Below, one piece after another: positions 13,004-53,018 of a DNA stretch of 64,000 bases. This DNA is from Yuukianura sp. NJ FZ-2021 (Eukaryota): the NCBI GenBank assembly GCA_046563655.1, contig JAJCTO010000010.1:620001-684000 (forward strand). The letters are read 5' to 3'. Both the position numbers and the translations under genes were made by a program. The notes under the pieces are model-generated. The model was not told the origin of the DNA. It saw nothing but the letters and a program-made list of their open reading frames with translations, and made no database searches. The number at the start of each line of letters is the position of its first letter. Positions within the stretch are counted from its first letter, which is position 1.

Positions 13004-13008
13004 AAAAA

Positions 13009-26229: not shown

Positions 26230-26235
26230 CATACC

Positions 26236-31757: not shown

Positions 31758-31835
31758 CGACTTGAATTACTACTGGATGGGAGTATTCTTTGAGCAGAAC
31801 TGCGGGGAAATATGTTCTCTTATGTTCTCTTGATC

Positions 31836-32297: not shown

Positions 32298-33366
32298 TCA
32301 AGGTAACTCCTGAATCGGAGATTTAAACGCGGGATGCGAGGATTGAGAAGATGAGATATCTGCTTGTCGGAGGATTAGATAGTGTTCCCAGAATCGGGAT
32401 TTTAGGTTGTCGGAGGATTAGGCAGGGTTCCCTGAATCGGGATTTTAGGTTGTCAGAGGATTAGGTAGGGTTCCCTGAATCGGGAAATCAGGGAAGAGGG
32501 TGGAGAGTGACCAAACCTCGGAAACGGCAGAAATGTCAGATTTGACGTGTTAACCGATTAATTTGCCGTTAACAGGGTCAAGTCAGTTATAGTTACAAGT
32601 GATTTGGATAGCGGACTTACTACTGGATGATCTAGGTGACTTTTAACTTGTTCGCCGGCTTATACAGAGGTACTGGAGCAGCTGGGGTGTCGATCCGATT
32701 AGTGTCAGCTGATTAAGAATAGTGGAAGTTGTTTTTACCATTAAGTGTTGTTAACCGATTCCAAACGGTGAGTCTTTGATTTCAGTCGATGCAGTAGCGA
32801 ATTCCGAGTGTTTTGATGTATGTCACTTGCAGGTAGGTCGATTATTTCACTGCTAAAAAAATGAGTTTGTCGGGAGCTCGCAATCCTTTGGCGACTTCGC
32901 GTCTGGACTTTCTCAGCGACTTTAGAAAAACCGTCAATACAAGTCAACAAGAACTTATGATTCGTATTTGCTTCAGAATACTTTGAAATATCGATTAGAT
33001 CAATTATATACTGATATCTTATGGACGGTATAAAAACTTTTCGTCTTTTGTAGCGTTTCCGAGCCGGTTTGTGAAGAGTATAAGCTGGAATTTGTTCTAA
33101 TGCTTTTAGTACATCAGTTTTTGTGACCCCACTCTTCTTTTGAACTTTAAAAGTTCCTTCTAATCCTGAAAATGCAAAACTTGAACGAGGATTGACGTAA
33201 TCCTTGCGTATTTTTTCTATTAAATGTTTCTGCTCCATTATCTAAATGAAATCTGACCCTAAGACTTGAAAATGCCAAACGTTTTATATGAGAGGTATAC
33301 ACACAATGAAATGAGTCATTTGAAGTTTCAACATGAAGCTGGCCACACGCATAAGTTCACACAATC

Positions 33367-34705
33367 ATGTCTACAACTGTGAAAGAAAACTCAGACTTTT
33401 TGAGATATTTAATCAAGTGTTCACCACAACAAAGAAAAGCGTTAATTAAATATGCTAGTAGTGGTGAAGTCAAAAGTATTTGTGAATGTGTTTTGAATAT
33501 ATACAAAAAAAATGTTGGTCTAAAAAAGTCTACAGTTGAAAAGTTACGTCCATTCAAAAGAACAATACTTTCAATTGTAAAGAAGAGACGCTCATCATTG
33601 GCAAAAAAGAAAAAACTTTTGTCTCAAAGGGGTGGTGCAATAATTCCGTTGCTATTAGGATCTATGATCCCAAGTGTTCTATCAGCCATCTTTCAAAAAA
33701 TGAAACGAATGCGTCTAATATCGGAATCAGAGTACAAGAACAAGTATGAAGAACCAAACAAAAGTTCCATAGAGTCACCAAAGATTGTGGGGGGTGAAGA
33801 TGAAGATTTGGAACACAAGAAGCAAACAATTTTATCAGTTGACGATGTACCAGATGATATCAAAGCTCTTTTATACTATGATTTTTCTCGCCGCCTACTC
33901 CAAAAAAAAAATTTTGTCAAATCGGCCAGTTTTAGTCAAGTCTATTTCTGAAACTAGTTCAAATTTGACATCAACTTCAAACACCAGTAGCAACAACAAC
34001 AACAACAACAATCAATCCAACTTGGTACAAAAAATTGAGTATGTTACAGAACCATACATTTTAAAACAAGTACCAGGAAAGGATGCCAAAAAGTTTATAA
34101 ACTTTATGAAATTGAGTAACATCAGCTGGAATTCAGACTTGGAAATTTTGATTGATAATAAGCGAATTCCTTCTTCAAATATCATCAATGTCCTCTCTCA
34201 ATTTATTTCATTTAAAAAGAAAAATTTGACCGAAAGGCAAAAACAAAATCTCCTATTTAATATACCAGTTGGATGGAATGAAGTTTATGAACATTTACAA
34301 AAATTTGAAGAAATCCAAACACCACCACAAACTGTTCGTAGAATTCTTGAAAAAGTACCAACAGGAGAAGTTGGTAGTAGAAGAGAAAATTTAACTACTA
34401 CAACAGTTGCCAGTGAACCAACAACCCCCCTTTCATCCCTTTTTAAAGGAGATTCTGAAGGAAATATTGAGGAGGAAGGGGATGATGATGATGATGTGGA
34501 AAGTAATACATTTGGTACACCACCAACCTTGTCTCCACAACAACATCAAAAATCATCTCCACTCAGATCTCTACCAATCGAAGACAGACTTCGAAAACGA
34601 GGAAACTTTACTACTACTACTACTACTACAAATGACAGTACAAAAAGTAAAAAAAAAATTGTCAAAAAACAACTTGCCAAAAGTTGGGAAGCATATAAAA
34701 ATTAA
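33367..34705 (+). pseudogene. Maverick PW-like and PZ-like genes, copy 1 (poly-A indels)
   Basis: Homologous to 43031-44365. Confidence 0.8.
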
Positions 34706-34852
34706 AAAAAAATTCTTTTTTTTCGTGTGTGTATTTGAAAAAAAAAATCCTTGCTTCCATGCTTGCAGGGATGCGCGCGCGCGCGGTCCCTGCTTTATCA
34801 TGGTGGGTTTTAAACCCAACAATGCTACGCTGGGTGTTACTCCCTGCCTGTT

Positions 34853-35036
34853 AGTAGCATGATAAGTGTGTCCAAGAACGTAAAACGTTTTAATTTCGAT
34901 TGGTGACTCAAGGTAAATTGCATTCTGTTTTTAAGTTTGAGGGTTTCAGGCATGAGTCATTGAGTATGGTTTATGTATCCTATTCCGGAATACGTTTCCT
35001 TTCGTAAGGTGACTAAGCGAAATAAGGCGGGAATAA
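34853..35036 (+). repeat. Left TIR of Maverick copy 2
   Basis: Inverted match to 52834-53018. Confidence 0.95.
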
Positions 35037-35284
35037 GTCATGCAATTATGCAAGGTTAAATGATGGCATTTTAAGATCTTTGGAAGACTTGTATTTGGTC
35101 CAAAGTCCGACCTGTTTTCAAGGACGGATGTGAGTCACGACCTTAAGTGCACACGTGCGTACAAAGTCCAGAATTGTATTTTCATCATCATTTCAACTTG
35201 TACTATTACTAGTCGACCCTAAAATTAGGTTTTGCGCAGGTATATATAGTTAGGTTTGAGTTGTAAGAAATCAGTCAAAGAAAT

Positions 35285-36215
35285 ATGGAGGTTCTCATGA
35301 GTTATGAGGGGAGATTACAAACTTTTCAGAACGCTCAACTAAGATGGCCATTGAATTTTGTGACCCCGGAAGCATGTTCGTTTGCGGGATTTTACTACCT
35401 CGGAGTAGATGACAAGGTGGGTAATTTTCAGCTTTATGTGAAAAGATAACGTGGGTAGATGACATGGTGGGTAATTTGCAAATTTCTTTAAAATTTAAAA
35501 AAAAAGTGTTAATGTTTTCTCTGTCGTAAATCAGGTTGCGTGTCCGTATTGCCGAGGTGTCGTCGGGGAGTGGGTGGTTGGTGATGAGCCGTTGTTGGAG
35601 CACCGCAAACATTTCCCACGTTGTCCTTATGTTGTGGTCATGACCGGTCTACTATCCGGGGTTGGGTTTGTTACCGTTCCGGATGTAACTCGGACCCACG
35701 GAATCGAGGCGACCGGAGCAACGAGAATTGATGTTTTCGAATATGTGAGCACAGGAACCGGTATGCGCAGCGCGGTAGCTTCTGATGTTTCTACCGAACC
35801 TGACCAGCCGGGAACAGATGCTGCCAGTGCTGAAACGGGAGGAACCGAGTTGGTCGCAGCAACCGCGCCCGAAACCGACGTTCCCGGCGATGGAGGAGCC
35901 GATTTGGCCGGGGCTGCAACACGTAACGTGGCAGAAATAACTACCCTCGAAACTAATATACCCAGTGTAAGAGGAACTGATGTTGCCGGGACAACTGAAC
36001 ACGTTTTAACAGCGGCATCCGGCGCTTTGGTTTCTGGTGTTAGGAAAGACGACTCTGGCAACAGCCTTACTTGTAAGATTTGTTGGGACAAAGAAGCTTG
36101 CGACGTGTTCTTGCCATGTAAACATTTGGTTGCATGTCGTAAATGTTCATTGTCATTAAAAAGTTGTGCAGTTTGCAGAGAACCTATACTAATTAGATTT
36201 AGGGTGTATACCTAG
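35285..36215 (+). CDS. iap: Inhibitor of apoptosis (single BIR, low-complexity linker, C3HC4 RING), 270 aa; exons 35285-35416 and 35535-36215
   Basis: Spliced product RLQTF..WP..AGFYYLGVDDK|VACPYC..W..GDEPLLEHRKHFPRC; RING CKIC..FLPCKHLVAC..C..CAVCR; TATA at 35241 and TCAGT Inr at 35271. Confidence 0.93.
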
Positions 36216-36459
36216 TCAAGTGTTGATATTTTGTGTCAAGTTTCCCAAGTCCTCCCACAACCCAATTCAAGTAAATGTTGAATTGAGTTGTGGGATGACT
36301 TTTGTTGCTGTGAGTTCGAATCCTACGTTGAGAAATGAATAAAAAAAAATCGATTCAAGTTTTATGTTTTCGTTTGAGGTACGTTTTGTGAATTACTATT
36401 TAATGAAGTGAAAGTTTTGAGGAAGTGAGCATTTGTTGTGCGGGCTAAGAGGAAGAAGC

Positions 36460-39400
36460 ATGGAAGGAATACACAGATTTGTATGTGACAATTGTGGAGA
36501 ACGTTTCGATTCACAAGATTCCTTTTGGGATCACGCTTTTGAACGTCATGTTTACGACCTTCGCATACCACGTCAAGGTATTTTGCTTTAAAAAAAAACA
36601 TTCGCTTTGGAGTATCTTATGAAGTTGTTTAAATTTGGTTAGAGTGGGAACCAAATGACGAACAAGTTGCGGGTCCAAGTCGTCCCAGGGTACCAGTCAA
36701 TGACGAATCTGGAGCAAGGAATTTGGAAAGACCAGTTGACCCAACTGTTGATGAAATTTTAGAAGGGCTGCTTGATTACGAAGGTAGTAGCAACAGAACA
36801 GAAATAGAGCGAAGTAGATGGCTTTGTGTTGAAATTAAGAAATTGATGTTTTTTGTAGAAGAATTGTCAGAAACTCAACAATCGGCCATCAATGCAGACT
36901 TGTCAAACTTTCGCGAGAGGTTCTGTTCATATTGCGCGATCAAGTTTGAGAACGCAGGAGAGCTCGACTACCATCGGTTTGAGTTTCATCGCGAACTCTA
37001 CACTGATCAACTGCAAGGTCAACAGTGGGGAGGAACTCAAAGTGGGCTAGAGATTCGAGAAGTTCAGAGGGCCGGACGTCGACGAAATGGCGCTGACGCT
37101 GGTATTGTACGTGAATTCGAGGTGGATTTGACTCCACAACTCTTTGCAGATGTGACGGGTGTGATGCGAAGTACAGCTAACGCACTGACAATTTTGGTGG
37201 AAGGACTTCTTCAGGAGTTTGGAGGCATCAAGTTGATTTGTACGTTGGTTGCAGAGATGACAAGAACATCAAGGGACCGACCAAGTGAAGCCGAGGTCGA
37301 AAGGTTTCCGTTCAATAGTTTTCTACATGGATGTTTTCATCAGAGTATGATTCAAACTATTCTGAGGCAAGTGTATTCTAAAATGAGATTGTCTATGGAA
37401 TCATTCGTGCACCACGGTTCGGGCTGGAAATTGAAGCGGTTCTTAGTACTTCAACTGAGAGTTTTTGAGTATAGGATGGACCGAGGGTCGAGTTGGATTC
37501 CGACTCCAAAAGTCATTCGCGACAAACGATGTATAAATATTCGTAACAATGACGAATTCTGCTTCAAGTACGCTATCATGGCAGAACTCAACCCGCTTTA
37601 CAAAGACCCAAATGTAGACTGGTACGCCTTTACCAATCCTAAAAATTATCAGATGGATCATTGTGAGATTGACTGGGGTTGTGTAAATTTTCCGATGACT
37701 ATCGCTCAACTTGACAAGTTCCACCACTTCAATCCACAGATTGCCGTAAATGTGTTTGGTTACGAACCTCGAGACGAACTTGCTCCAAGTTTGAAGGGGA
37801 AAAAGAAGATTGACATTTTTCCTCTCTACGTATGTCGTGAGGCAAGAGCTAAAAGTGTTGATTTGTTATTGTTAATCGACGGAAACAAGTCTCATTACAC
37901 ACTGTTGCGACAAAGTGATTACAATCCTACGGAGGGGCTGTCTCGATTGCTAGGAAAAGGTGAACGGTGGTATGAAAAGTTTGTGTGTCGTTTTTGTATG
38001 TGTTTTTCAAAAAGCGAAAAGAAATTGCAAAATCACCAAAAGTTTTGTGCGGCGTTGGACATACAACGCGTCGTTTTACCAACCGAAAAATACTTCACGT
38101 CAAAATTCATCGTGCAACGTCTTCCTGTGCCGTATGTCATATACTTAGACTTTGAAGCACTGTTAGTACCTACAGACGGGATTGGTACTCGACAAATTGG
38201 TGCCGTTTATAATGAACATTTAGACTGTGGGTGGTCAATGAGTATCATTGGGCCGGACGGTTATCTGGCGGACCGTGTTGTGACATTTTGTGGTCCGAAT
38301 GCTGCACTGAGGTTGGTTGACGAGCTCGTGTCTGTTGCCGGAAAGATATATCCAATTTTGAAAGAAGATGTAGGCCTCGACCCACGATGGACAGAATCTG
38401 ACTATGCTCACCTTTTGCTGGCTTCAACTCACTGTATTCATTGTGGACTGGAGTTTGTGGAAGGGGTTGACACTAAGTGCATTGACCACTGCCATGTTAC
38501 ATCAACCATTCGTGGAGTGAGTTGCGGTCCTTGTAACCTGAACGCCCAAGTTTGTTCATTCATTCCAGTTGTTTGTCATGGTTTTCGACATTACGATTCG
38601 AAATTTATTGTACAAGCGTTGCGTGCTAGTACAATGAAATCTGTGGAAGTTTTGGCGAGCAGCAGCACCGAGAAGTTTACTGCTCTTCGGTTGACAACCC
38701 ATGGAGGTCATGTTCTGCGAATGATTGATTCGTATCAGTTTATTAGTGCGAGCTTAGCAGAGCAAGTCAAAATGCTTGCCAAAGAAGGAAAAGACAAATT
38801 TGGTGTGACTTGTCATCATTTTCAACAGTACGGAAGTAAAATTGAATTACTTTTAAGAAAAGGGGTTTACCCTTACAGTTACTTTGACTCCATGGAGCGA
38901 TTTGATGAAACGTGTTTGCCACCTGCCGAAAAGTGGAAAAGCGATTTGACTGGAAAATCCATCAGTCCTGAAGATTTGGAACATGCGCATACGGTTTGGC
39001 GGGAATTTGGCTGTCAAACATTGAGAGATTATCACAACTTGTACGTTTCTCTTGATGTTTGCCTCCTGGCGGATTGTTTCCAGAATATGAGAAGAAGTAT
39101 GCTCGAGAGTTTCCGCCTGGATCCTGCTCACTACCTCACTCTTCCAGGAATAGCATACGACGCAGCAATGTTGGCAGGAAAAGTGGAGTACGAGTATCTG
39201 GATGAGATTGACAAGTACATGTATTTTGAACGCGGGATTCGGGGTGGAATTTGTTCTGTCGGACTACGTTATGCAAAAGCGAACAACCCTTACTTGGGGA
39301 ATTTATATGACCCCACGCTTCCATTGAGTTACATTTGCTACTGGGATGCAAACGCCTTGTACGCAACTTGTTTGAGGAACTACGTACCTTGGAAAGATTT

Positions 39401-40711
39401 TGTTTGGGAAAAGTCCTTGGAAAACAGAACAAGAAATTTGGATTGTGTTGTGAAGATGATCATGGATTTGGATGATTGTGGTCCGGAGGGATTAGTTTTG
39501 GAGGTAGATTTGGATTACCCACAAGAATTACATGATTCTCACAATGACTACCCATTAGCAGTAGAACGAAGTGAAATAACATACGAGTGGCTCTCTGACT
39601 ACACGAAAGAAGTTTTGAAGAACGTGGGGGCTACACCTGGATCTTGCAAAAAAACAAAACTTTTGGGGACGTTGTGTAACAAAACAAACTACATTGTCCA
39701 TTATCGACTTTTGAAGTTGTTTTTGGAGCTTGGACTGAAACTTGTGAAGGTTCACAGAGCCATACGGTTTACTCAGGCTCCATTATTTCGTGTATACACG
39801 GACATTTGTATAACACGTCGACGCGAAGCTACGAATCCGGTGGATAAGAACTTTTACAAGGCCATGGGAAACATTTTGGCGGGAAAAGTTTACCAGAATG
39901 TCCGGAAATATAGGCGGATCAACATTGCATTATCAAGAGAGAAGATGAGAGAGTATGCCCGAAAGCCAACCGTTGAGGACGTCAAAATCGTTCATGATGA
40001 GTGTGTTTTGTTTGTGATGAAAAAGTTGGCTGCTAGGCTGGACAAACCTATTTTTGTTGGACAGTGCATTTTGGATGATTCCAAATGTAGAATGTACAGC
40101 TTTTACTACAAGTGGTTAAAGCCGCGATATGGAGACAACATGAGGCTGATGTATACGGATACTGATAGTTTTTTGCTTCACATAAAGACGGAAGATGTTT
40201 ATGCAGATATTGCTGAAAGTGTGAGGAGGAATGAAGGCGTCTTTGACACATCAAAGTACGACAGAGCAAATGAAAAATTTGGATATTTGTGGAGCGAGCA
40301 ATTTGAAGGGGTTGGTGGTTGCTTCAAGGATGAATGCGCCAACGAAGTAATTTCGGAAGCAATAGCATTGAAGCCAAAAATGTATGCAATCAAGATGTTG
40401 AAGGAGGATGGGACCCAAACTCAGCTGAAGAAGGCAAAAGGAACAGTTCGCTCGGTTGTCGAGAATGAATTGGATTTTGAAGATTACAAAAAAGTTTTAG
40501 AAAACGGGCAGTTCAAGTCTTATAGTATGAATACAATTCGAAGTTTAAATCATCGTTTGTATACAACTACAATGTACAAAAAAGTTTGTCAGCATATGAA
40601 GATAAGAGTTTTTATTTGTCTCCAATTGATTCATTAAGATTTGGTCATTATAGAATTGAATTAGAAAAGAATTTGCATCAAATTGTAGACGGTATGGAAG
40701 AAGATGAATAA
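36460..40711 (+). CDS. Protein-primed family B DNA polymerase, ~1395 aa; exons 36460-36577 and 36643-40711; one-base poly-A frameshift near 40580
   Basis: Zn fingers, YLDFE exonuclease, endonuclease-VII-like C..C..DHCH..RG..C..CN, RKGVYPY, YWDANALY, YTDTDS, KPKMY; true C-terminus inferred from copy 1. Confidence 0.93.
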
Positions 40712-40769
40712 AGCCAATTCGACTAAATGTCCTTCCAGTTAGTAGTTGTTTGGAGTTTGATTTGTTAGG

Positions 40770-41429
40770 ATGGAAATCCAATGTTCATTGCAGCATCCGT
40801 TTGTCATGGTGTTGGCCGGTCCTACACAAAGTGGAAAAAGTACATTGATAAAAAAAGTTTTGGAACGTTTAGACGAAGTTGTTGAGCCAAAAATCAAGCG
40901 TGTAATCTACTGTTATGCCGAGGATGAGCCGGATTTTGCAAAAAGTTTAAAAGGAGTTAACAGGGGAAAAGAAATTGAAATTGATTTTCGCCAAGGTATG
41001 GATCACATTGATGTTGACATTGGAAACAAGACGCCAACCCTTGTTGTGTTGGATGACTTTATGGAAGACCTTGGATCATCTTTGGATATTTGTAGAATGG
41101 TTACTCGGGGTTCTCATCACCGTTCACTGTCTCTTATGATTACGATTCAAAATTTTTTCTTCAAAGGATGTAGGAATTTGACTTTAAATGCAAAATATGT
41201 TGCATTATTTCGAAATCCAAGGGATAAGACTATAATAAAATATTTGGGACGACAAATGAATGGCGGAAAATCAAATTCGACGCTAGAAGAAGCATTTGAG
41301 GATGCTACAAAGAACAAGCCAAATAGCTATTTATTTTTAGATATGTCTCAAAGTCAAAATGATGACTTTCGAATAAGATCAAATGTATTTGCAGATCCAG
41401 AATCTTGTATAGTATATTTGAAAAAGTAA
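40770..41429 (+). CDS. A32/FtsK-like genome packaging ATPase
   Basis: Walker A GPTQSGKS, Walker B VVLDD, RGSHH, TIQN, FRNPRD. Confidence 0.93.
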   Translation: MEIQCSLQHPFVMVLAGPTQSGKSTLIKKVLERLDEVVEPKIKRVIYCYAEDEPDFAKSLKGVNRGKEIEIDFRQGMDHIDVDIGNKTPTLVVLDDFMEDLGSSLDICRMVTRGSHHRSLSLMITIQNFFFKGCRNLTLNAKYVALFRNPRDKTIIKYLGRQMNGGKSNSTLEEAFEDATKNKPNSYLFLDMSQSQNDDFRIRSNVFADPESCIVYLKK

Positions 41430-41435
41430 CATACC

Positions 41436-41927
41436 TTAGTTTCGTTTCAACTTTGACAGTCCTTCTGTGAGACAATCAAATAAATGAATTGGAATCACAA
41501 CACTAGATCCAGCATCGTAAACATTTTTAATATGTAAATGTGTGAGCGGTCCTTGGTCATTTCCTTGTTCATTGCCAATGTAGAGCTGCCAACCATCTTC
41601 CAAATTTACTCGTGGTGGTGGATGTGGTTTAGGAAATTCTTGACGAACTTCAACAACCATTGCCAAAGATGTGACTTTACGAGGAATCTTGGGAATTCGA
41701 ACTCGTTTGCGTTGTTTTTTTCTTGGGTAGTATCCGTGAGTATATTTGGGTTTAGGTTAAGAAAATCTTGAATTGGAGAATCCATTTCGACTGGCTGGAG
41801 TTCCGACGTTTTATTGAGGTTACAGTTACAAGAAAAGGTTTCACAAACAGTAATTGTTGTAGTTGAATTTTTTGAAGCAAAAATTTGCAAAAGAACGCCA
41901 CAGAGAGCAAATTTGACACGAGCTCAT
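41436..41927 (-). pseudogene. Hypothetical protein, frameshifted counterpart of 26236-26730
   Basis: Homopolymer indels relative to copy 1. Confidence 0.55.
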
Positions 41928-41939
41928 GTCACGACGAAG

Positions 41940-42902
41940 TTAAACTGAAGACTGAGGAACGCGTTGCAGTTCTTCGTTGTAAAATATTCCAAATATGTCT
42001 TCACCTTTGCTGTCTTTTAACTTGTAAGTGACGGGAACGGAGTTGCAAACTTCAACAATCTGGAAAATTTCTTTTGTCCAGCTTTGGGCGTATCCCTTTT
42101 CAAAAAGTGTTTTATATTTACTAAGTAGTACGGAGTCTCCAACATTGAAGGTAGCAGGTTTCCGTTTCGTTTGGTTTTGTTTTGGTAAGTGTCCGTACAA
42201 ATTTAGAAATACTTCAGTTTTTGTGTCGTCATTGACTTGGTTTGGTGTACATTTTATGGAGCGATGATATGTGTTGTTGTATGAAGTTACAATATTTTGC
42301 AAAACATCTAAGAATTTTGTGGTCTGATTGTGTGTCATATATCTCGCCAACCTTCTCATTAATGTTTGGTTAAATCTTTCAACAATAACTGCCTTCAGTT
42401 CTGATCTAGTACTAAAGAATGAAACAGAGTATTGTTTTAAAAGCTGTTTAACATTTCGATTTAAAAATTCTTTCCCTTCGTCAAATTGAATTGACTTTGG
42501 AGGGCCTCTTTTCTTAAAGATTTTTTGTAAAGCGTTTGCTACTTGACTCCCAGTTTTATTTTTTAAAGGGATGACGTCAGCGACTTTAGAAAAACCGTCA
42601 ATACAAGTCAACAAGAACTTATGATTCGTATTTGCTTCAGAATACTTTGAAATATCGATTAGATCAATTATATACTGATATCTTATGGACGGTATAAAAA
42701 CTTTTTGTCTTTTGTAGCGTTTCCGAGCCGGTTTGTGAAGAGTATAAGCTGGAATTTGTTCTAATGCTTTTAGTACATCAGTTTTTGTGACCCCACTCTT
42801 CTTTTGAACTTTAAAAGTTCCTTCTAATCCTGAAAATGCAAAACTTGAACGAGGATTGACGTAATCCTTGCGTATTTTTTCTATTAAATGTTTCTGCTCC
42901 AT
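41940..42902 (-). CDS. Maverick retroviral-like (rve) integrase, 320 aa
   Basis: IDLID, IDGFSK, DEGKEF, ERFNQT, YNNTYHRSIK, FEKGY..W..E.F, G.FYNEELQ. Confidence 0.95.
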   Translation of the reverse strand: MEQKHLIEKIRKDYVNPRSSFAFSGLEGTFKVQKKSGVTKTDVLKALEQIPAYTLHKPARKRYKRQKVFIPSIRYQYIIDLIDISKYSEANTNHKFLLTCIDGFSKVADVIPLKNKTGSQVANALQKIFKKRGPPKSIQFDEGKEFLNRNVKQLLKQYSVSFFSTRSELKAVIVERFNQTLMRRLARYMTHNQTTKFLDVLQNIVTSYNNTYHRSIKCTPNQVNDDTKTEVFLNLYGHLPKQNQTKRKPATFNVGDSVLLSKYKTLFEKGYAQSWTKEIFQIVEVCNSVPVTYKLKDSKGEDIFGIFYNEELQRVPQSSV

Positions 42903-43030
42903 TATCTAAATGAAATCTGACCCTAAGACTTGAAAATGCCAAACGTTTTATATGAGAGGTATACACACAATGAAATGAGTCATTTGAAGTTTCAACATGA
43001 AGCTGGTCACACGCATAAGTTCACACAATC

Positions 43031-43366
43031 ATGTCTACAACTGTGAAAGAAAACTCAGACTTTTTGAGATATTTAATCAAGTGTTCACCACAACAAAGAA
43101 AAGCGTTAATTAAATATGCTAGTAGTGGTGAAGTCAAAAGTATTTGTGAATGTGTTTTGAATATATACAAAAAAAATGTTGGTCTAAAAAAGTCTACAGT
43201 TGAAAAGTTACGTCCATTCAAAAGAACAATACTTTCAATTGTAAAGAAGAGACGCTCATCATTGGCAAAAAAGAAAAAACTTTTGTCTCAAAGGGGTGGT
43301 GCAATAATTCCATTGCTATTAGGATCTATGATCCCAAGTGTTCTATCAGCCATCTTTCAAAAATGA
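43031..43366 (+). CDS. Small basic Maverick conserved protein (PW-like)
   Basis: ICECVLN, Lys-rich, QRGG followed by a hydrophobic C-terminal helix; label recalled from family pattern. Confidence 0.7.
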   Translation: MSTTVKENSDFLRYLIKCSPQQRKALIKYASSGEVKSICECVLNIYKKNVGLKKSTVEKLRPFKRTILSIVKKRRSSLAKKKKLLSQRGGAIIPLLLGSMIPSVLSAIFQK

Positions 43367-44365
43367 AACGAATGCGTCTAATATCGGAATCAGAGTACAA
43401 GAACAAGTATGAAGAACCAAACAAAAGTTCCATAGAGTCACCAAAGATTGTGGGGGGTGAAGATGAAGATTTGGAACACAAGAAGCAAACAATTTTATCA
43501 GTTGACGATGTACCAGATGATATCAAAGCTCTTTTATACTATGATTTTTCTCGCCGCCTACTCCAAAAAAAAAAAATTTTGTCAAATCGTCCAGTTTTAG
43601 TCAAGTCTATTTCTGAAACTAGTTCAAATTTGACATCAACCTCAAACACCAGTAGCAACAACAACAACAACAACAATCAATCCAACTTGGTACAAAAAAT
43701 TGAGTATGTTACAGAACCATACATCTTAAAACAAGTACCAGGAAAGAATGCCAAAAAGTTTGTAAACTTTATGAAATTGAGTAACATCAGTTGGAATTCA
43801 GACTTGGAAATTTTGATTGATAATAAGCGAATTCCTTCTTCAAATATCATCAATGTCCTCTCTCAATTTATCAATTAAAAAGAAAAATTTGACCGAAAGG
43901 CAAAAACAAAATCTCCTATTTAATATACCAGTTGGATGGAATGAAGTTTATGAACATTTACAAAAATTTGAAGAAATCCAAACACCACCACAAACTGTTC
44001 GTAGAATTCTTGAAAAAGTACCAACAGGAGAAGTTGGTAGTAGAAGAGAAAATTTAACTACTACAACAGTTGCCAGTGAACCAACAACCCCCCTTTCATC
44101 CCTTTTTAAAGGAGATTCTGAAGGAAATATTGAGGAGGAAGGGGATGATGATGATGATGTGGAAAGTAATACATTTGGTACACCACCAACCTTGTCTCCA
44201 CAACAACATCAAAAATCATCTCCACTCAAATCTCTACCAATCAAAGACAGACTTCGAAAACGAGGAAACTTTACTACTACTACTACTACAAATGACAGTA
44301 CAAAAAGTAAAAAAAAAATTGTCAAAAAACAACTTGCCAAAAGTTGGGAAGCATATAAAAATTAA
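43363..44365 (+). pseudogene. Maverick conserved protein (PZ-like), frameshift near 43870
   Basis: MRLI, IL..DDIKALLY, ISWN..I..SNI, GW, terminal W; copy 1 is open across this frameshift. Confidence 0.65.
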
Positions 44366-44514
44366 AAAAAAATTCTTTTTTTTCGTGTGTGTATTTGAAA
44401 AAAAAAAATCCTTGCCTCCATGCTTGCAGGGATGCGCGCGCGCGCGGTCCCTGCTTTATCATGGTGGGTTTTAAACCCAACAATGCTACGCTGGGTGTTA
44501 CTCCCTGCTGACCA

Positions 44515-44680
44515 CGTGGGTTTTAACCCTGCGTGCAACTTGGGTTTAAGCCCTGCGTGCAACTTGGGTTAAAGCCCTGCGTGCAACTTGTATTTAAGCC
44601 CTGCGTGCAACTTGGGTTTAAGCCCTGCGTACAACTTGGGTTTAAGCCCTGCGTGCAACCCGGGGTTTTTAACCCCTGTG
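44515..44680. repeat. 24-bp tandem repeat, ~6-7 copies
   Basis: Unit CCCTGCGTGCAACTTGGGTTTAAG. Confidence 0.93.
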
Positions 44681-44783
44681 CCCCCTCTACTTTTTTTTTT
44701 CTTAAGTAGTAAGTAAACGTTGTATTTATATCTTAGTGTGATTTTGAATTTCGTCAAATAAACACGTGAATCTCAAAAAGAAA

Positions 44784-45584
44784 ATGGCGCATCAACAGCG
44801 TGACACCTCATTTTTTGTAACATTACAATCAAACGCATGTATGGATTTATTTCCAGATAATAAAATTTCAAATTTCAAGAACCGTCTTTCCACAACAATC
44901 TCACTGCCAGCTGGGCAATGGGAAGTTGCGCTCACAGAAATTTCATACACATTTGGAAATGCAATAATACATTCTGGTGACGTATTATTTTCAACTTTCA
45001 AAAAAAGTGAAGATGAGTCAGTATCAAGCCTACAAACATATGTTTGTAGCAGAAACATTACAAGTGAACAGGAACTGTTACAAGAACTTTCATCTGCTCT
45101 AACCGGAGCAACTTTTGAAATTAGGGACCACATCTTCTATTATCAATTCCCTTTGCTACATGAAGGAATTATAGTTTCCCAAAAATTGGTTGATATACTT
45201 GGACTACCTAAAGCAAATCTTTCTGTAACAAGTAGTGCTAAAGCTACAGAAAAACTTTTTTTAAAACAACCTTTTCAACTCAAAGGTCAAGGAACAATGC
45301 CAGTGTTTTTCAATACTGGAAATACAAAAATGTTTGTATACTGTAACCTAATTAAACCACAATTTGTTGGAGATGTACTTGTACAGTGTCTGAGAGTTGT
45401 CAATTATGATGGACACATACGACGCCAAGTTGTAAATGAATTTACACATCCATATTTTTTGGACCTTGCCGTAAGTGAGTTTGACACTGTCAAGATCTAC
45501 TTATCAAATGAAGTTGGAGAAAATCTGGCATTACAATTTGGAAACGTGACGGCGACACTTCGCTTCCGTCAGCGAAAATATTAA
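44784..45584 (+). CDS. Minor capsid protein (penton, PX)
   Basis: FFVTLQSN...FPDN..SNF, WEVALTEISY, MFVYCNLI.PQFVGD..LR, L.FR C-terminus. Confidence 0.88.
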   Translation: MAHQQRDTSFFVTLQSNACMDLFPDNKISNFKNRLSTTISLPAGQWEVALTEISYTFGNAIIHSGDVLFSTFKKSEDESVSSLQTYVCSRNITSEQELLQELSSALTGATFEIRDHIFYYQFPLLHEGIIVSQKLVDILGLPKANLSVTSSAKATEKLFLKQPFQLKGQGTMPVFFNTGNTKMFVYCNLIKPQFVGDVLVQCLRVVNYDGHIRRQVVNEFTHPYFLDLAVSEFDTVKIYLSNEVGENLALQFGNVTATLRFRQRKY

Positions 45585-45597
45585 AACCAAAAACAAA

Positions 45598-46047
45598 ATG
45601 AGAGCCCTAGTCCCATACAATTGTGCCAGAGATAGTGCTCAAAATTTCTTCAAATTTTCAACCCATCCCTCCTCTCTTCATCAAGTTGGCTATGGATCCC
45701 CCATATTTTTTTCTGGAGTACGAAGACAAAGAGGAGCAGGGTTAGGAGCCGTACTAGGTACATTTGCAAGAAGGCTAGTACCATTTTTAAAAAAATATAT
45801 CGCTCCACATGCATTGAATGCAGCCCGCTCAGTTGCATCCGACCTAATTGAACGTAAACGACCAATCTCTGAATCACTTCGTTCCCACGGTATAGACGCT
45901 CTTAAAGGAGTAGGACGGGACTTGCTGAGTCAGACAGGATCTGGACGGCGAGCCGTAAAGAAGCGTAAAAAACGAAAGAAAGGGAAGAAGAAGAAGAAAA
46001 TTGTCAAAAAGAAAATAAAACCCTCCAAACCAAGATACCTATTTTGA
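45598..46047 (+). CDS. Basic core / membrane-active protein (PM-like)
   Basis: QVGYG..F.G..QRGAGLG..L..FARRLVPFLK amphipathic helix; poly-Lys tail. Confidence 0.72.
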   Translation: MRALVPYNCARDSAQNFFKFSTHPSSLHQVGYGSPIFFSGVRRQRGAGLGAVLGTFARRLVPFLKKYIAPHALNAARSVASDLIERKRPISESLRSHGIDALKGVGRDLLSQTGSGRRAVKKRKKRKKGKKKKKIVKKKIKPSKPRYLF

Positions 46048-46065
46048 ACAACAACAACAACAAAA

Positions 46066-47412
46066 ATGCCGAAAGTTAGGTCTTCTAAAGTTTCTCCTAG
46101 CACAGCTTCTTCTTCTTTGCCTTACACATTTGTTAGATCAGAAACACAACTCTTTGAAGAACCAATCTTTGATGTTAGTCTCGCATCAACCTCAGCTACG
46201 GAATTCCATTCAATCAACTCACTTTCAGACAATCAAGCCCCTCTGGAATTTTTTGTACAAGGAAATCAAACTGAACTAATCGACTTGTCTGAAACGAAAC
46301 TTTATTTAAAAGTTAAAATTGTAAAGTCCAACGGCACGGATTTGGATGACAACAGCATTGTTGCTCCAGCCAACAATTTCCTTCACTCGCTATTTCTACA
46401 GTGTTCCATATATCTCAATGAAGTTTTAATTACTCCTGCAAGTTTACAGTATGCCTACAGAGCATACTTGGAAACTTTACTCGGATATGGAAAAGAATAC
46501 AAACGCTCTCAAAGTCAATGCTCCCTTTTCTACAAGGACAAAGATCCTAAATGTACAGATGAAACAAAAGAAGATGGATTTAAACAAAGATACACATTTG
46601 CAGTCAAAAGCAAAATAATTGAAATGGTTGGACGTCCGTTTACCGACCTTTGTGTCCAAAACAAATTTCTCGTTCCTTCAATCGACTTACGCATTTCATT
46701 TTTAAGATCCACACCAGAGTTTTGTCTCGTTGCCAAAACAGCTGGTAACTACCAAGTTCAAATTCAAGATGCTCGCCTCATTGTACAACGCCATCAACTT
46801 CTTCCCTCATTACTAACTTCAATTCTCCAAACTTGGGAGCATGGAAGGCCAGCAACATATCCAATGAAACGAGTTGAAATTAAAACATATACTCTATCCC
46901 CTGGCACAGTTACCAACGTCAACGAAAATCTCATTTCTGGTGTCATTTGTGATCGACTACTAATTGGACTTTTACCTTCAGAAAACTACATTGGATCTAT
47001 AACCACAAATCCATTTGCATTTGAACACTTTGATTTGAGCTACATAAATGTTAGCATTAATGGTGACTCTGGAACTTCACTTGGGACACATGTAGACTTT
47101 ACGCAAGATCAATATGTTCAACTCTACCACAATCTATTTTGTAGTCTCGGAATTGCCAACGATGACGTTGGACTAGATTTGAACCGTGAAGAATTCAAAT
47201 CTCATCCGCTTATGCTATATAATCTCAGACATTCAAAAGAAGGTTTTCCTACTCCCAAATACGGCAACGTCAAGATTGATCTAAAATTTAAAACTGCACT
47301 CAAAAGCTCTGTCACCGTCCTTGTCTACGCCGAATTTCAATCCGTCCTACATATTGATTCCTCAAAATCAGTATACTTTAGAGACTACAGTCTTGCCAGC
47401 CTTCAACAATGA
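46066..47412 (+). CDS. Major capsid protein (double jelly-roll, PY)
   Basis: PLEFFV.G, IDLSETKLYLKVKI, PANNFLHSLF, YAYRAYLETLL, NPFAFEHFD. Confidence 0.92.
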   Translation: MPKVRSSKVSPSTASSSLPYTFVRSETQLFEEPIFDVSLASTSATEFHSINSLSDNQAPLEFFVQGNQTELIDLSETKLYLKVKIVKSNGTDLDDNSIVAPANNFLHSLFLQCSIYLNEVLITPASLQYAYRAYLETLLGYGKEYKRSQSQCSLFYKDKDPKCTDETKEDGFKQRYTFAVKSKIIEMVGRPFTDLCVQNKFLVPSIDLRISFLRSTPEFCLVAKTAGNYQVQIQDARLIVQRHQLLPSLLTSILQTWEHGRPATYPMKRVEIKTYTLSPGTVTNVNENLISGVICDRLLIGLLPSENYIGSITTNPFAFEHFDLSYINVSINGDSGTSLGTHVDFTQDQYVQLYHNLFCSLGIANDDVGLDLNREEFKSHPLMLYNLRHSKEGFPTPKYGNVKIDLKFKTALKSSVTVLVYAEFQSVLHIDSSKSVYFRDYSLASLQQ

Positions 47413-47933
47413 ATACACAACAAATTTACTCTTATCTGGCGAAAATTGTTGGCAAACATCCTTCCACTTTTGATGTAATTCCAATTGATCATTTAAATAC
47501 CATGGAAATTTTCACCTACCCTCTTCTACTTGTCGTCAACAGTGCTCCTTCTCACCATCCAGGACAACATTGGCTAGCCCTGTTTAGAGAAAATTCAAAA
47601 TCTCCACTAACATTTGTAGATTCTTATGGACTTGGTGTAGAAATGTATGATATAGCTCTGCAAAATTTTGCCAAACGTTTAAACACAACCATAATCGAAA
47701 ATACAAAACAACTTCAAAGTATAAATTCTACAGTTTGTGGTGAGTATGCAATTTACTTTCTGTTTAAACTTTTGCATTCCTGCTGTTTAATGTCAATCTA
47801 CTGTAACTTTACTTCAAACACTATTACAAATGATAGGCTAGTAAATCGGTTTGTCAGAAAACTGCTACGTCAAATAGTAAAAACTATCCCCTACTATGGC
47901 CCAACTCAATGTTGTACCCCACATACTAAATAA
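47409..47933 (+). CDS. Adenain-like cysteine maturation protease
   Basis: VVN..PGQHWLA, FVDSYG, LQS..STVCGEY catalytic motifs. Confidence 0.93.
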   Translation: MNTQQIYSYLAKIVGKHPSTFDVIPIDHLNTMEIFTYPLLLVVNSAPSHHPGQHWLALFRENSKSPLTFVDSYGLGVEMYDIALQNFAKRLNTTIIENTKQLQSINSTVCGEYAIYFLFKLLHSCCLMSIYCNFTSNTITNDRLVNRFVRKLLRQIVKTIPYYGPTQCCTPHTK

Positions 47934-48031
47934 GAACAACAAGTAAACGCTCTTTTTTTCTTAATGCTGCACAACACTCACAATGGAGCTTTTATTTTTC
48001 AAAAAAACATTATTCCTCAAAAATAACATTT

Positions 48032-48415
48032 CTAATCGTGAGGCATATCCTCAATTTCCTCCTTGGCAGAAGCGACGTCTCTCAAGCAGCTTTGGAGTGT
48101 GTCCGTAGCTTTGTCCAAGTCACACCCGACGGCACGGCAATAAATGTTCGTAAGTTTCCGCATGACATATGGAATGTTCCGTCCCTCAAAGTTTACCACC
48201 TTTCCCTTGCGTTTAAAGTACACCCAAGTGTATGGTCGTCCTTGAAAAACCGAGTCCCGATGAAAAACCTCCAACTTTTTGTCATCGTCCACATAATTCA
48301 ACACCTCACGCTCCACGCCGTCATCTACGACTGCTTCATCTCCTTATACACACACAAAAAATCACTTTTCCCCAAATTTGCTATTGTAATAAAAAGAATT
48401 ACCTCTCTTGTCCAT
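48032..48415 (-). CDS. Small hypothetical protein, 2 exons (48415-48403, 48342-48032)
   Basis: 60-bp GT-AG intron joins MDKR-G to the 94-aa ORF in frame; TATAAA at 48496-48491 and TCAGT Inr upstream. Confidence 0.6.
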
Positions 48416-48598
48416 TGTTAAAAGTAAGAGACTCCTTCTCCAAATGCTTCTCAAAAACTGAATGATTTGACATGCAACAAGTGCCATGATTTTATACCCC
48501 ACACAAAACGTACAGACAACGACTTTTTATTCAAATCGAACAGATAAGACAGCAAAACGTTTACAATTCAGAAATAGGCATGAATCATATAGTGACGA

Positions 48599-50484
48599 TT
48601 ACCAATTTCCATAGTCAGCAGCAATCGTTTCCAACTCCTTCACCAGCAAGTCCTTGGCTTCCATGTTCTCACCAAACTTAAATGTGAACGACTTTCCCGC
48701 CAAAATATGCCCTCCCCGGGTGCTTGCTGAACTCCCTCTTCCGTTTTCCATCACAACAAGAACCCCCAAAGCATCAGCTGCAGCCAAAATCCTGTTCCAG
48801 CATTCCTTGTCCTGCGAAAAGCTGAACCTTGTTTGCTGACAGACACCGGACAAAGAAATTTCTTGTAGGGCTGGAAGTCTCGGAACTAGTTCCAAGAACA
48901 CAACATGGTCAACCCCGCAAGAAAAATCAATGTGACCTCCAAGGCGGTCCAAATGTAGTTTTCTCAAATTTGGTAGAGATGCAATCGATCTTACAAGTTC
49001 CCCACGTAACACATTTGCGCCGACCAGAGAAAGTTTGTAAATGGACTTCGGATAATTCTGCTGACACACAGTTTTGTGGAACCCTTGAAATCTTCCGTGT
49101 CCAAAGAAGAATGGGCTGTGGCTGTGGGGAATAAACTCCAGACGCAATTCCGTCAAATTATTCAGTTCCTCCAACCCCTCAATCCTATATGGCGACCTCG
49201 CGTCCATCACCACGTTACTAACATCAAACTTGCGTAGGCTTTCTTTGCTATTATTGATTATTACAGCTAGCCGTTGCATTGAAACTCCGTCTAGTTCCAC
49301 CTTCAAGCATTCAAAAGCATTTGGCAAGTCCACCAACTTCCACCAAATACTAAAAAACGAGGACGGGAAAGCGTAGTGCGGAAGACAACTGATCTCCAAA
49401 ACCCGCAACTTTGGCAGCACCACGTTTGCCACATGGCCGATCTCTCCAAACTCCATATTGCTCCCCGTACATGTTAGGTTCAAAACTTCCAACTTCTCAT
49501 GATGCCTTTGGATGAATTCGAAGAAGCTGTGAACTGTGGCCGGCTTGAATTTGTGACACAACTGGAACTCGGAAAGTTGTGCTAGTACAAAGTCGGGTTT
49601 TGAGCACAAAATTTCAAACAACCCGGGCTGTTGGTGCCTTCCGGCATTTCCGTTGGACAAGCAGGAGTCAATCTTGAGTATTTTCAAGTTCTGGAAGTGG
49701 CTCACCATTTGAGACGGCGTGAATTGGGCACAATTGATCTTTCCAATTGCACCAACGTGAAAAAAGTTCATCGCAGGAACAAAGTAATACGTCCGAATTG
49801 CGTTCCGCAGACCGCCCATTGAGCAAGCGCCAGAAAATGTTACCTCCTGGACCAGGCTGCGAAACTTGATTGCAGGCAGCGCTGCGTCACGGTAGTTTTT
49901 CAGAACAAGATGCCTCACTTTCGACTCCTTCACATGCGGCGGGAGCCACTTGTTATAGCACACCAGCTTCCACAATCCCAACCTAAACCAAAAAAAAATC
50001 CTTCAAAAAAAAGCTCAGAATCGCAACAGGAAGCGCCTTGGGATATGTGACGAACCTGTCAACGCGTTTTCTCCACTCGCGAGACACAAGCCGCATTTTA
50101 CTCAGCTCATTATTATTCAAATACGACAGAACAAGGGCCAACATCTAGTTAACAAAAAAATTCATTCATTTTTTCGTATATATATATCCCTTCGCGGCTA
50201 AAGATTTTCCTGTTTGGGGAAACGTGAGAATCGCCCCCTTCCCCTCCTCGAAATTTCTCTAAAAAAAAAAACTGTCAACTCTTGCATTGCCCCGCATGAT
50301 GTAACCAGTCTCACCATGCCCCACTTGACGTTAATCCAAAAACACTCGAATTCTCACATAACCCCGCATGGTGGAGATTCTAAAACACCCAAATTCTCAC
50401 ATAACCCCGCGTGATGTCAATCCTACAAAACCCTACCCAACAGCTCACCTCATTCGGAAGGCTTCCCAACTTCGGGTCTTCCAT
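48599..50484 (-). CDS. F-box/LRR-like protein, 502 aa; exons 50484-50449, 50144-50056, 49982-48599
   Basis: Spliced N-terminus SLPNE|MLALVLSYLNNNELSKMRLVSREWRKRVD; repeated LxxLxL units (NLKILKI, KLEVLNL, KLRVLEI, NLTELRL, NLRKLHL, ALQEISL). Confidence 0.85.
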
Positions 50485-51001
50485 TGCCCCAAATGTGTTA
50501 TAATTTGTGCTTTTTTTGTTGGTTTTCTAACAAGCGTGAGGTACTGTTACAAATGACAAAACAACTCAATTATATACCCCAGCTCAAGGATAAAACAAAC
50601 GTTTCCTGAACGTCCAAAGTCTAACAAAATGACGTCACCTGATAACACAGTCTAACAAGATAGCAACGATAGAAGATGATGGGATGCGTCCAAACTTTGT
50701 CTTCTCACCAAAGTACCACCTAACCATCTACTACGACGTGAAAGTCCAAGGTCATGGGCCACCCATCAAAACTCCTGACGTGCTTATGCTAGACTTTCAC
50801 AGTTTGAATTTCGATGATATTCTTTTCACATTTCTTAAAAAACAAAGTTTTTTAAGAAATTTTCTTAATTCTCTAAGAAATTCATTTTTATAGTACAAAC
50901 AGCAAACCCACAAAAACCGAAAAGTACAACGAAAAAAAAAATTCAATTTTTTTGCAAACAAAACAAAAATGTTGTTTTTTTTTAAATAGTAATTCAAGTA
51001 T

Positions 51002-52370
51002 TTAAAACCCAACTCGGGTAAGGCGCAATCGCATGTTGCGAGTTTCGCACATTGGACCAGCAGACCCCCCCCGCTTTTTTGGAGGGCGCCCCCTTGGGCG
51101 TTTTGGCGGGACTGGCTCCTCCGCCACATCCACAACAGCCACTTCCCGCTTCACGGCAACGTTAGCAAGCTCTTGTTTGAGTCGATTCAACTCCTCCACA
51201 GCTTCCCGTTTTGCCGTTTCAGCCGCAGACGCAACTACTTCGGCCACTTGCTGGTTGTCCTGGGCAATTTTAGTACGCTCCCGAAGTTCGCGCACTTTCT
51301 CTTCAGACTCCTCAAGTTTCTTGTGAACAATGTCAAACCTTGCGGCATAAGACACTTGTTCCTCCTTGTGACGAATGTTCGCCATGTGCCACCGCGCCTC
51401 GGATTCAACGAGTTTTTGACTCAATTCCGCGCAGCGGGATTCGGAGGCTGCTCCCCGCTTGTTCGATTCGTCAATTAATCTTAAGTTGTTCGCCATGATT
51501 TTATCCCTAAACAAAAATTGAAATTACTAACTTCACAGAGAAACACAAACAAAAACTTGACAAAAAAAAATTGACAACATTGAAAGATTGTTAAACCAAA
51601 AAAAACACTTACCACGCCGTAGTACGACAGTTCAGCTCTGTTTCTTTCTTGTTCAGTTCCGCCTGCAAGTTCATAATTGTTTTCGTTTTTTGGCAACTGC
51701 CGAACTCCAACTCCGCAACTCTTTGACCCCTGAAAAAAAAACGAATTAAAAAATTTAATTTTCACACATAACTTAAAAAACTACAAAACGCTTACAATGC
51801 GTATTGCACAGGCAAAGCAGCGATCCTGGCCTGCAGATCAATCACCGTGCTTTCGATGATTTGAATGCGATCACTAAAGATTTTTAAAGAAAAACAAAAT
51901 TTTGTTTAACATTTTTTCAAATAAAACGTAAAAGAAAAATTACCTATCGGAAGTCACCACCAAACCGGACCAGGCCATGCCACATTCCTGCATGGACAGA
52001 AACAGCCTTCGCCCCTCCACTTTCTCCCCAGTGGTCTTGACCATGGCCTGACACACTGGACATGCCGTCCTGAATGAAAAAGCACAAAATTAGCACAAGG
52101 TTTAACTTAACATATAAAGTAATAAAAGTACTTACTCAACTGTGGCCGAATCTCCAAGGCATCCAGGATGGACAGAATTAGCCCAATTCAGCATGCAAAT
52201 CCTAAAAACGCAAAGTTTTTAAATCCTGACCAAACATGTTAATCCTAAGAATCTGATACAAATACTTACCAGTGCAACACGTGGTTGCACTCAGTTGAGA
52301 TGACGATGGCCTTCACGTCCATCGGCTCATGGTCCCCGAACTTGTCCAAACACACGGGACAAATAACCAT
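51002..52370 (-). CDS. RING-H2 / coiled-coil / AT-hook protein, 330 aa; exons 52370-52270, 52201-52136, 52069-51944, 51873-51796, 51729-51613, 51506-51002
   Basis: Five GT-AG introns (68, 66, 70, 66, 106 bp) give one open frame: MVICPVC..ECNHVLHWICMLNW..ACPVC, long heptad region, KRPRGRPPKK. Confidence 0.88.
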
Positions 52371-52833
52371 GGTTTTTTCTTTTTTTTTTTTTACGACAGA
52401 GATTGACAGCACAAACTCAACTTACTTTCAAATTAACTTTCAACTTACAACAAACCTCTTTATATCTTACGAACGAGGCGGACTTAAAAACCAAAGCATT
52501 TAGAGATTGTGCAACTAAACAAAATACTCCAGCGGGGTCGAAGGTTGGAATCCTAACGCTCCAAGCAATTGTCACAGTGTCACACGGACAGAAACTACAA
52601 ATTTCTGTCCACATCCCAAAAGCATGCCAAGGACGTCCAACACTCAAATTAACATCATGTTTTGTCATGTGAATGACTCAGTTTTCAGATATCTGATTTC
52701 AACAACAAAATGTCGTCAAGAACTGGCACAGCAAACTTACGATCTGACTTAACTTAAAAACTTAACGATCTTAACTTAACCTTCGTGAGTCACCCCCACA
52801 GACCAAAAACGCGCGAACGAATCCGGAACGTTT

Positions 52834-53018
52834 TTATTCCCGCCTTATTTCGCTGAGTCACGTTACGAAAGGTTAACGTATTCCGGAATAGGATACATAA
52901 ACCATACTCAATGACTCATGCCTGAAACCCTCAAACTTAAAAACAGAATGCAATTTACCTTGAGTCACCAAACGAAATTAAAACGTTTTACGTTCTTGGA
53001 CACACTAATCATGCTACT
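52834..53018 (-). repeat. Right TIR of the Maverick
   Basis: Ends ...CATGCTACT; inverted copy of both left TIRs. Confidence 0.95.

Follow-up and report, generated by a model that had tools for sequence, protein, structure and literature searches.

Mavericks, or Polintons, are regarded as endogenous viruses, and little is known of their dealings with the host cell. The question raised by the locus described here is whether such an element can hold spliced genes for ubiquitin-ligase and anti-apoptotic proteins as lasting parts of its genome. The window, meaning the whole stretch of 64,000 nucleotides that was analysed (Yuukianura sp. NJ FZ-2021, GenBank assembly GCA_046563655.1, contig JAJCTO010000010.1, positions 620,001 to 684,000 of the forward strand), contains an 18.2 kb element, at window positions 34853-53018, that is bounded exactly by terminal inverted repeats (TIRs). 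An earlier note on this DNA, made from the letters alone, had described it as a capsid-encoding Maverick with three intron-containing genes, for a BIR-RING IAP, an F-box/leucine-rich-repeat (LRR) protein and a RING-H2 protein. Our analysis makes it probable that the element is a Maverick/Polinton of the animal 'adintovirus' type, inserted into animal DNA that is rich in transposons, with the core genes in mid-element and host-like, spliced accessory genes of the ubiquitin and apoptosis pathways at both ends.

The features of the element are listed in Table 1. The TIRs lie where the earlier note placed them and enclose an integrase gene and a gene for a double-jelly-roll capsid protein, and all of the long frames between them are open. 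By blastn, the match between the two ends is 185 nt long at 96.8 % identity and reaches 35036 on the left side. The splice models were read from the sequence and checked with a script, and domains were scored exon by exon against Pfam. When the GT-AG introns are removed, the IAP, F-box and RING-H2 genes give complete frames, free of internal stops, of 270, 502 and 330 aa, so that the claim of three genes that are open only once spliced stands. All eight introns of these genes are GT-AG introns with pyrimidine-rich 3' ends, and the GC content is 0.49 in exons and 0.32 in introns. The count of ten predicted junctions was also reproduced, with eight in the three named genes (1+2+5), one in a small gene of 107 aa that we call SML and one, in the polymerase gene, that is probable. 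A TATA box precedes the ATG by 45-95 nt in each of the four accessory genes (at 35241 for the IAP gene, 48496 for SML, 50576 for the F-box gene and 52464 for the RING-H2 gene). AATAAA follows the stop codon in three of the four (36338, 47996 and 48531, in the same order), which is two of the three named genes.

Each of the three diagnostic domains is divided by introns, as had been proposed. The IAP product has one BIR, a linker of approximately 150 aa and a C-terminal C3HC4 RING. The BIR extends over two exons, with profile positions 1-37 (20.8 bits) in one exon frame and 35-69 (36.5 bits) in the other, and exon 2 includes the BIR signature C-x2-C-x16-H-x6-C. The RING is of the IAP type (zf-C3HC4_3, PF13920, 1.8e-12, 47.3 bits against a cut-off of 27). 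A search for homologous proteins with exon 2 gave four matches at 24-27 % identity, the best of them to cellular-type IAPs. In the F-box gene, exon 1 ends in LPNE, corresponding to the LP.E start of the domain, and exon 2, of only 29 aa, matches profile positions 9-36 of 43 in PF00646 (4.9e-5, 23.5 bits against a cut-off of 20.5). In the RING-H2 product, a C3H2C3 RING encoded by exons 1-3 lies at the N terminus and is followed by a helical or coiled-coil region and a basic tail containing RGRP. The pattern C-x2-C-x22-C-x-H-x2-H-x2-C-x23-C-x2-C lies at aa 4-62 of the spliced product, and exon 1 scores 20.5 bits against zf-RING_2 (PF13639, 6e-4), below the cut-off of 27.3, because it holds only profile positions 3-26 of 44. 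Four of the five introns of this gene have a GTAAG donor. These predictions support the conclusion that intron-split genes between the TIRs code for BIR plus RING, F-box and RING-H2 proteins. The expectation that an open-reading-frame (ORF) survey would miss or fragment this cargo was borne out, in that the single-ORF pieces of the F-box and RING-H2 genes have no Pfam match at E<=0.01.

The label F-box/LRR was confirmed in its first half only, as exon 2 scores above the Pfam cut-off for the F-box and an LRR part was not established. The C-terminal region of approximately 460 aa may be an LRR-like solenoid. A low-confidence model of it gave Foldseek matches among which we recognized, by name, COI1 and TIR1 (leading), LRRC8, TLRs and RNase inhibitor, with E values from 4.7e-5 and TM scores of only 0.2-0.39, and models of such low confidence can give meaningless matches. 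We take all of these to be leucine-rich-repeat proteins, and COI1 and TIR1 to be F-box proteins as well. Three results make the LRR label a weak one. The Pfam matches to LRR_4, LRR_EndoS and LRR_RPS2 have E values of 0.018-0.09 and all lie below their cut-offs. The single-sequence model has a pLDDT of 45 and consists of alternating short strands and helices. In a crude count, five LRR motifs were found where shuffled sequences have a mean of 3.8, and 644 of 2000 shuffles reach five. Sequence and profile searches of the PDB with the C-terminal domain were empty, and a protein search with the large exon returned no homologue.

Metagenome contigs were scanned with a capsid alignment. The pattern search used an alignment of seq­uences from seven capsid proteins, as one of 62 was too diverse; 309 relatives were found, of which 80 loci with a median length of 3.9 kb were kept. 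A scan of IMG/VR with the capsid alignment gave 50 pattern matches and no relatives. Individual loci are referred to below as L001, L002 and so on. In L001 and L002, whose major capsid protein (MCP) is 61 % identical to that in the window, the MCP, protease, small and F-box genes follow one another in the same order and on the same strands as in the window. The F-box proteins of these two loci align end to end with that of the window at 18-19 % identity (tblastn, 2.4e-10), and the F-box of L001 scores 23.1 bits (6.6e-5), again from profile position 9. In both loci a short first exon ends in LP.E and is followed by GTAAG, and the next exon resumes after AG in the same codon. The SML intron has the same phase and place in L001, and L001, L002 and L003 each have a homologue of SML that directly follows the protease gene. 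A close fragment, L009, carries the start of the F-box gene, which is thus found in all three loci with an MCP identity of at least 48 %. In L003 (MCP 44 % identical) the small gene is present and the F-box gene is absent.

Drawn from sequence comparison, the conserved intron positions are the strongest evidence for genuine introns and for retention of the F-box gene in the lineage. Position, strand, frame and intron site are kept even though the F-box proteins are only 18-19 % identical, which implies long retention, and by this comparison both the F-box gene and the small gene have long belonged to the lineage. It also follows that accessory genes in such elements can be both spliced and long-lived, and that surveys of unbroken ORFs miss them. 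It is possible, and we put it forward tentatively, that this one lineage of animal Mavericks maintains the spliced F-box gene as a fixed accessory gene, joined in this copy by the BIR-RING IAP and a private RING-H2/coiled-coil E3. Hijacking of SCF and ubiquitin would then be a regular polintovirus strategy, and the accessory genes would be expressed in spliced form.

Retention of this kind stands against a reading that we consider unlikely, namely that the accessory genes are passengers, host genes taken up at the DNA level that do not serve the life cycle of the element. The introns would then be present because the genes were picked up as DNA, and the gene structure is indeed host-like. Cargo of nematode Mavericks has been described as host-derived (10.1101/2022.07.12.499685; here and below, cited sources are drawn on as far as their accessible text goes). 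The RING-H2 gene was found in one copy only when the related loci were searched. BIR and RING sequences occur in L022 and L025 (MCP 33-34 % identical), with E values of 4e-10 and 1.2e-10 for the BIR and with the RING found at 1.3e-12 in L025 and by pattern in L022. As BIR and RING are in separate frames there, an intron is presumed to lie between them. These genes are placed elsewhere, tail to tail with the polymerase gene, and, apart from the domain core, have little in common with the IAP gene of the window, a pattern suggestive of repeated captures; IAPs thus recur among these elements and were probably captured separately. However, at 61 % MCP identity the F-box and small genes still agree in position, strand, frame and intron site, the four accessory frames are all open in the complete copy, and the IAP gene is better conserved in its exons than in its intron and flank. 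This last point comes from a second copy of the element, described below, which has an IAP gene in the same place: substitutions between the copies are rarer in the exons (5 of 813 nt) than in the intron and 5' flank (12 of 406 nt; Fisher p=0.0027).

The second copy, copy A (Table 1), adjoins the complete element and was overlooked in the earlier note. Copy A corresponds to the left 9.6 kb of the family, in blastn blocks that are 96.7 %, 99.1 % and 98.9 % identical to the complete copy. Two insertions break it up, one of 1 kb (21789-22794) and the other a reverse-transcriptase element of 5.5 kb (27392-32912; RVT_1). Several genes of copy A, the IAP gene among them, have frameshifts. Divergence between the copies is mosaic. 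When 36633-37745 is compared with 20421-21536, the copies do not differ at all within 36633-37222, and the next 523 nt contain 32 substitutions and one 3-nt indel. Identity is 99.1 % across 37993-42588. Such a pattern is suggestive of recombination among members of the family. The pN/pS ratio of the polymerase between the copies is 0.26, and the copies are therefore different family members and not a recent duplication. Only 5 nt separate the end of copy A from the left TIR of the complete copy, in which the equivalent point is 44508, in the first unit of the tandem repeat. Nested insertion with deletion, template switching or an assembly error are possible origins of this head-to-tail junction. 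The first of these is unsupported, as there is no duplication at any flank. An array of a 44-nt tandem repeat, with approximately nine or more units, lies at 31782-32342, at the end of the reverse-transcriptase element in copy A.

The presence of two family members with mosaic divergence in one window indicates that co-resident elements meet, and it bears on a further reading, that the cargo acts between elements or for inheritance and not on host defence or cell death, by exclusion of rival Mavericks or viruses or by drive or addiction like that of the nematode toxin-antidote pairs. A selfish toxin did arise from nematode Maverick cargo (10.1101/2022.07.12.499685). However, nothing toxin-like was seen among the cargo in the window, and we regard this reading as quite improbable. 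BIR plus RING, F-box and RING-H2 are standard parts of ubiquitin ligases and caspase control. Finally, the notion that chance GT-AG pairs join unrelated open stretches of a decaying element is close to refuted: although the splice models are known from sequence and the domains were scored per exon, the BIR halves meet at profile positions 35-37, the F-box exon begins at profile position 9 right after an LP.E exon in three elements, the ends of all eight introns and the GTAAG donors are as described above, and intron GC lies 17 points under exon GC.

In the explanation that we prefer, the accessory genes of the Maverick would be transcribed by the host RNA polymerase II and the messages spliced in the nucleus. 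The IAP would restrain caspase-dependent cell death, and the F-box protein would join the host Skp1-Cullin complex and deliver a host protein for ubiquitination. The RING-H2 protein could be a further E3, perhaps on chromatin, as its basic tail suggests an association with chromatin or DNA. The joint effect would be a cell that survives and stays permissive during replication of the element. Viral proteins with such roles are well known. Baculovirus and entomopoxvirus IAPs combine BIR and RING in a protein that blocks cell death, and viral F-box proteins that borrow the host SCF ligase include the poxvirus ankyrin/PRANC proteins, nanovirus Clink and polerovirus P0. By analogy, the proteins in the window might work in the same way in principle. 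They differ in that the predicted F-box protein has no ankyrin or PRANC part and the genes appear to be spliced, and no sequence kinship to those viral proteins was found beyond the shared domains.

Several observations weigh against this explanation or against parts of it. The splicing is predicted from sequence and comparison alone. No target-site duplication of 5-6 bp was seen, because the hexanucleotides that flank the element are not alike (cctgtt and gctgcc), and if the element is taken as a composite with copy A the outer flanks (caggtg and gctgcc) again show no duplication; as the complete element abuts another copy, its original flank may have been lost. The large polymerase-like frame had no polymerase match in Pfam (where PF03175 is the usual Polinton polymerase family), PHROG, NCBIfam or the PDB, although the lack of a PF03175 match fits the divergent 'Beta' class of PolB, which is <30 % identical to PF03175 (PMC8502044). 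The penton candidate matched nothing in Pfam or PHROG and only unnamed clusters in the atlas. For the RING-H2 gene, no relative was found in a protein search with the last exon or among the related loci, and the gene may be a recent or private acquisition. The pN/pS of the IAP gene between the two copies is 0.48, and with five substitutions only it is uninformative. Among the 59 loci that carry a protease gene, only eight extend at least 2 kb beyond it, which limits the view of how widely the cargo is spread.

The core genes lie between the accessory genes. The large polymerase-like frame, 36846-40637 (1263 aa), contains the motifs LDFEA, DANALYA and YTDTDS, which we take to be Exo I, motif A and motif C of the polymerase, and an Endonuclease_7 insert (1.7e-6). 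It is 31 % identical over 1267 aa to a large ORF of the related element L025 (7045-10833), where a C2H2 finger is found within the single polymerase ORF and Endonuclease_7 matches at 1.4e-3. In the window, the C2H2 finger (zf-C2H2, 3.7e-4) is in the probable 5' exon, and the acceptor at 36643 is in frame. From the motifs and from synteny, the frame probably encodes a protein-primed family B polymerase of a divergent class. Homologues of the P-loop ATPase were found in 20 of the 80 related loci; the best ATPase candidate in L025, 4416-5078, matches Pox_A32 above the cut-off (7.3e-6), and its kinship to the ATPase in the window is putative. The integrase also has a PHROG transposase match (2.2e-8) and homologues in 41 of the 80 loci. 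In this element the integrase gene stands between the ATPase gene and the capsid module.

The MCP has no Pfam match. Its relatives number 7185 library representatives at E<=1e-3, the nearest at 60 % identity, and include one with a name, a springtail 'F54H12.2-like' protein; in its atlas clusters, PF21738 is found on 14-30 % of members. An AF2 model built with 62 aligned sequences has a pLDDT of 91, and its Foldseek matches are the MCPs of SGIV (an iridovirus), Sputnik, PBCV-1 and mavirus, with E values of 3e-16 to 4e-12 and TM scores of about 0.5-0.6. On this model, the assignment of the product as a double-jelly-roll MCP stands. The protease has a homologue in 59 of the 80 loci, and the L025 frame located 3' of the capsid gene matches Peptidase_C5 above the cut-off, at 26.6 bits. 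The MCP, penton candidate and protease had no PHROG match.

Table 1. Features of the Maverick element and of the adjoining partial copy, in window coordinates. Junctions are given as exon end/next exon start, and loci are the 80 related loci.
Feature	Position	Strand	Remarks
Left TIR	34853-34996		144 nt, 99 % complementary to 52875-53018; element starts 5'-AGTAGC
IAP gene	35285-36215	+	exon 1, 35285-35416; 118-nt intron, 35417-35534; exon 2, 35535-36215; junction 35416/35535
Probable polymerase gene	36460-40637	+	probable 5' exon, 36460-36577 (C2H2 finger); 65-nt intron; main exon from 36643; probable junction 36577/36643
P-loop ATPase (packaging-type)	40770-41429	+	AAA_14, 1.2e-5, and Adeno_IVa2, 3.7e-3, both under cut-offs
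rve integrase	41940-42902	-	PF00665, 2.1e-12, 47.6 bits (cut-off 32.6)
Three frames without Pfam match	43031-43366, 43363-43878, 43853-44365	+	homologues in 17/80, 5/80 and 0/80 loci, respectively
Tandem repeat	44479-44670 (also delimited as 44503-44670)		24-nt unit, inside element; copy A homology stops at first unit
Putative minor capsid (penton) protein	44784-45584	+	266 aa; from position and conservation alone; homologues beside MCP in 53/80 loci
Small basic protein	45598-46047	+	between the two capsid genes; homologues in 55/80 loci; no family match
MCP, double jelly roll	46066-47412	+	448 aa; structure-model match
Adenain-like cysteine protease	47409-47933	+	Peptidase_C5, 3e-4, 20.8-21.0 bits (cut-off 21.3)
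Small gene SML	48032-48415	-	107 aa; exon 1, 48415-48403; 60-nt intron; exon 2, 48342-48032; junction 48403/48342
F-box gene	48599-50484	-	502 aa; exons 50484-50449, 50144-50056, 49982-48599; introns of 304 and 73 nt; junctions 50449/50144, 50056/49982
RING-H2 gene	51002-52370	-	330 aa; 6 exons; 5 GT-AG introns of 66-106 nt; junctions 52270/52201, 52136/52069, 51944/51873, 51796/51729, 51613/51506
RING-H2 exons (splice model)	52370-52270, 52201-52136, 52069-51944, 51873-51796, 51729-51613, 51506-51002	-	
Right TIR	52875-53018		element ends GCTACT-3'
Copy A, partial (5') copy of this family, decayed	18606-34847	+	left TIR to tandem repeat

Adintoviruses are described as TIR-bounded elements of 12-25 kb with PolB, an rve integrase, a double-jelly-roll capsid protein, a penton protein, a packaging ATPase and adenain, and homologues of the anti-apoptotic Bcl2 and IAP proteins have been observed in them (Starrett 2021, PMC8502044). 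The element in the window is like them in having accessory genes near its ends, and differs in the intron inside the BIR of its IAP gene and in its F-box and RING-H2 genes. The accessible main text of that paper does not contain F-box, LRR, ligase, exon or splic-, and its Supplementary Figs S1 and S2 may list more. An IAP gene is also drawn on the map of a leafhopper adintovirus (10.64898/2026.07.28.741253).

In nematode Mavericks, a region of 2-5 kb by the TIR holds genes with introns, and the core genes are intronless (Widen, 10.1101/2022.07.12.499685). That cargo is read there as host-derived and exchanged between elements, with inter-element recombination inferred, and it is the source of the selfish toxin mentioned above. 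It consists of WASP proteases and of KRMA kinases with ubiquitin-like N-termini and not of ligase parts, and the element in the window further differs in having cargo at both ends and a probable polymerase intron. Vertebrate Mavericks have TIRs of 46-1447 bp and sizes of 12.7-24.6 kb, and intact elements have accessory regions at both ends, no introns and the termini 5'-(AGT)2...(ACT)2-3' (Barreat and Katzourakis 2021, PMC8097293). Accessory regions likewise flank the core in the window, where the AGTAGC/GCTACT ends resemble those termini; differences are the five intron-bearing genes, the gene order and that no target-site duplication was seen. The statement in the earlier note that Maverick genes are usually annotated as intronless holds for vertebrate core genes (PMC8097293).

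With an adintovirus IAP (PMC8502044) and intron-bearing nematode cargo (10.1101/2022.07.12.499685) in print, the novelty is smaller than had been claimed. A literature search, by title and abstract and within papers, turned up no F-box or RING-H2 genes described for Mavericks, though the supplements of PMC8502044 could hold such genes, and the accessible text of PMC8905726, PMC10748475, PMC6431247 and 10.1101/2024.03.25.586562 has nothing on Maverick-borne IAP or F-box genes or on introns. In the sources consulted, we did not find a lineage-conserved spliced F-box gene or the three-part set of IAP, F-box and RING-H2 genes. The advance is incremental and consists of a new type of cargo together with comparative evidence for its retention, as the general ideas are already in print in the sources cited; it extends the known cargo of Mavericks and is not a new kind of system. 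In the copy described here, the frames for an apoptosis inhibitor, an SCF adaptor and another E3 are all open, and their products are testable candidates for host-interaction factors. If the reading put forward tentatively above is true, ORF-based catalogues undercount the accessory genes of polintoviruses.

In the place of the RING-H2 gene, L001 (7321-8719) and L002 (4412-5666) have four tandem small cysteine-rich genes with paired C-x2-C motifs and weak zinc-ribbon matches. These may correspond to the 'Oncoid' genes of adintoviruses (PMC8502044). In L003 (1-9694), the order is polymerase, ATPase, capsid module, protease, small gene, integrase and PX/PY-like frames, and as this order differs, the modules of the lineage have been rearranged.

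Around the element, the window contains nested BEL/Pao, Gypsy and other retroelements. One BEL/Pao retrotransposon (6828-13307), nested within the remains of older BEL/Pao and Gypsy elements, has an open frame of 1740 aa and is probably a very recent insertion because its 300-nt terminal repeats are 100 % identical. The sole non-transposon, host-type gene noticed in the window is a frame at 58346-59038 on the minus strand, whose product matches the VOMI domain (vitelline membrane outer layer protein I; 2.3e-38). The 9-mer TCTGTCGTA occurs six times in the window against 0.32 expected, at 35520, 40257, 50122 and 52392, and in copy A at 19273 and 25059. One of these sites lies just 5' of the acceptor of the IAP intron, and another precedes the start codon of the RING-H2 gene by 22 nt.

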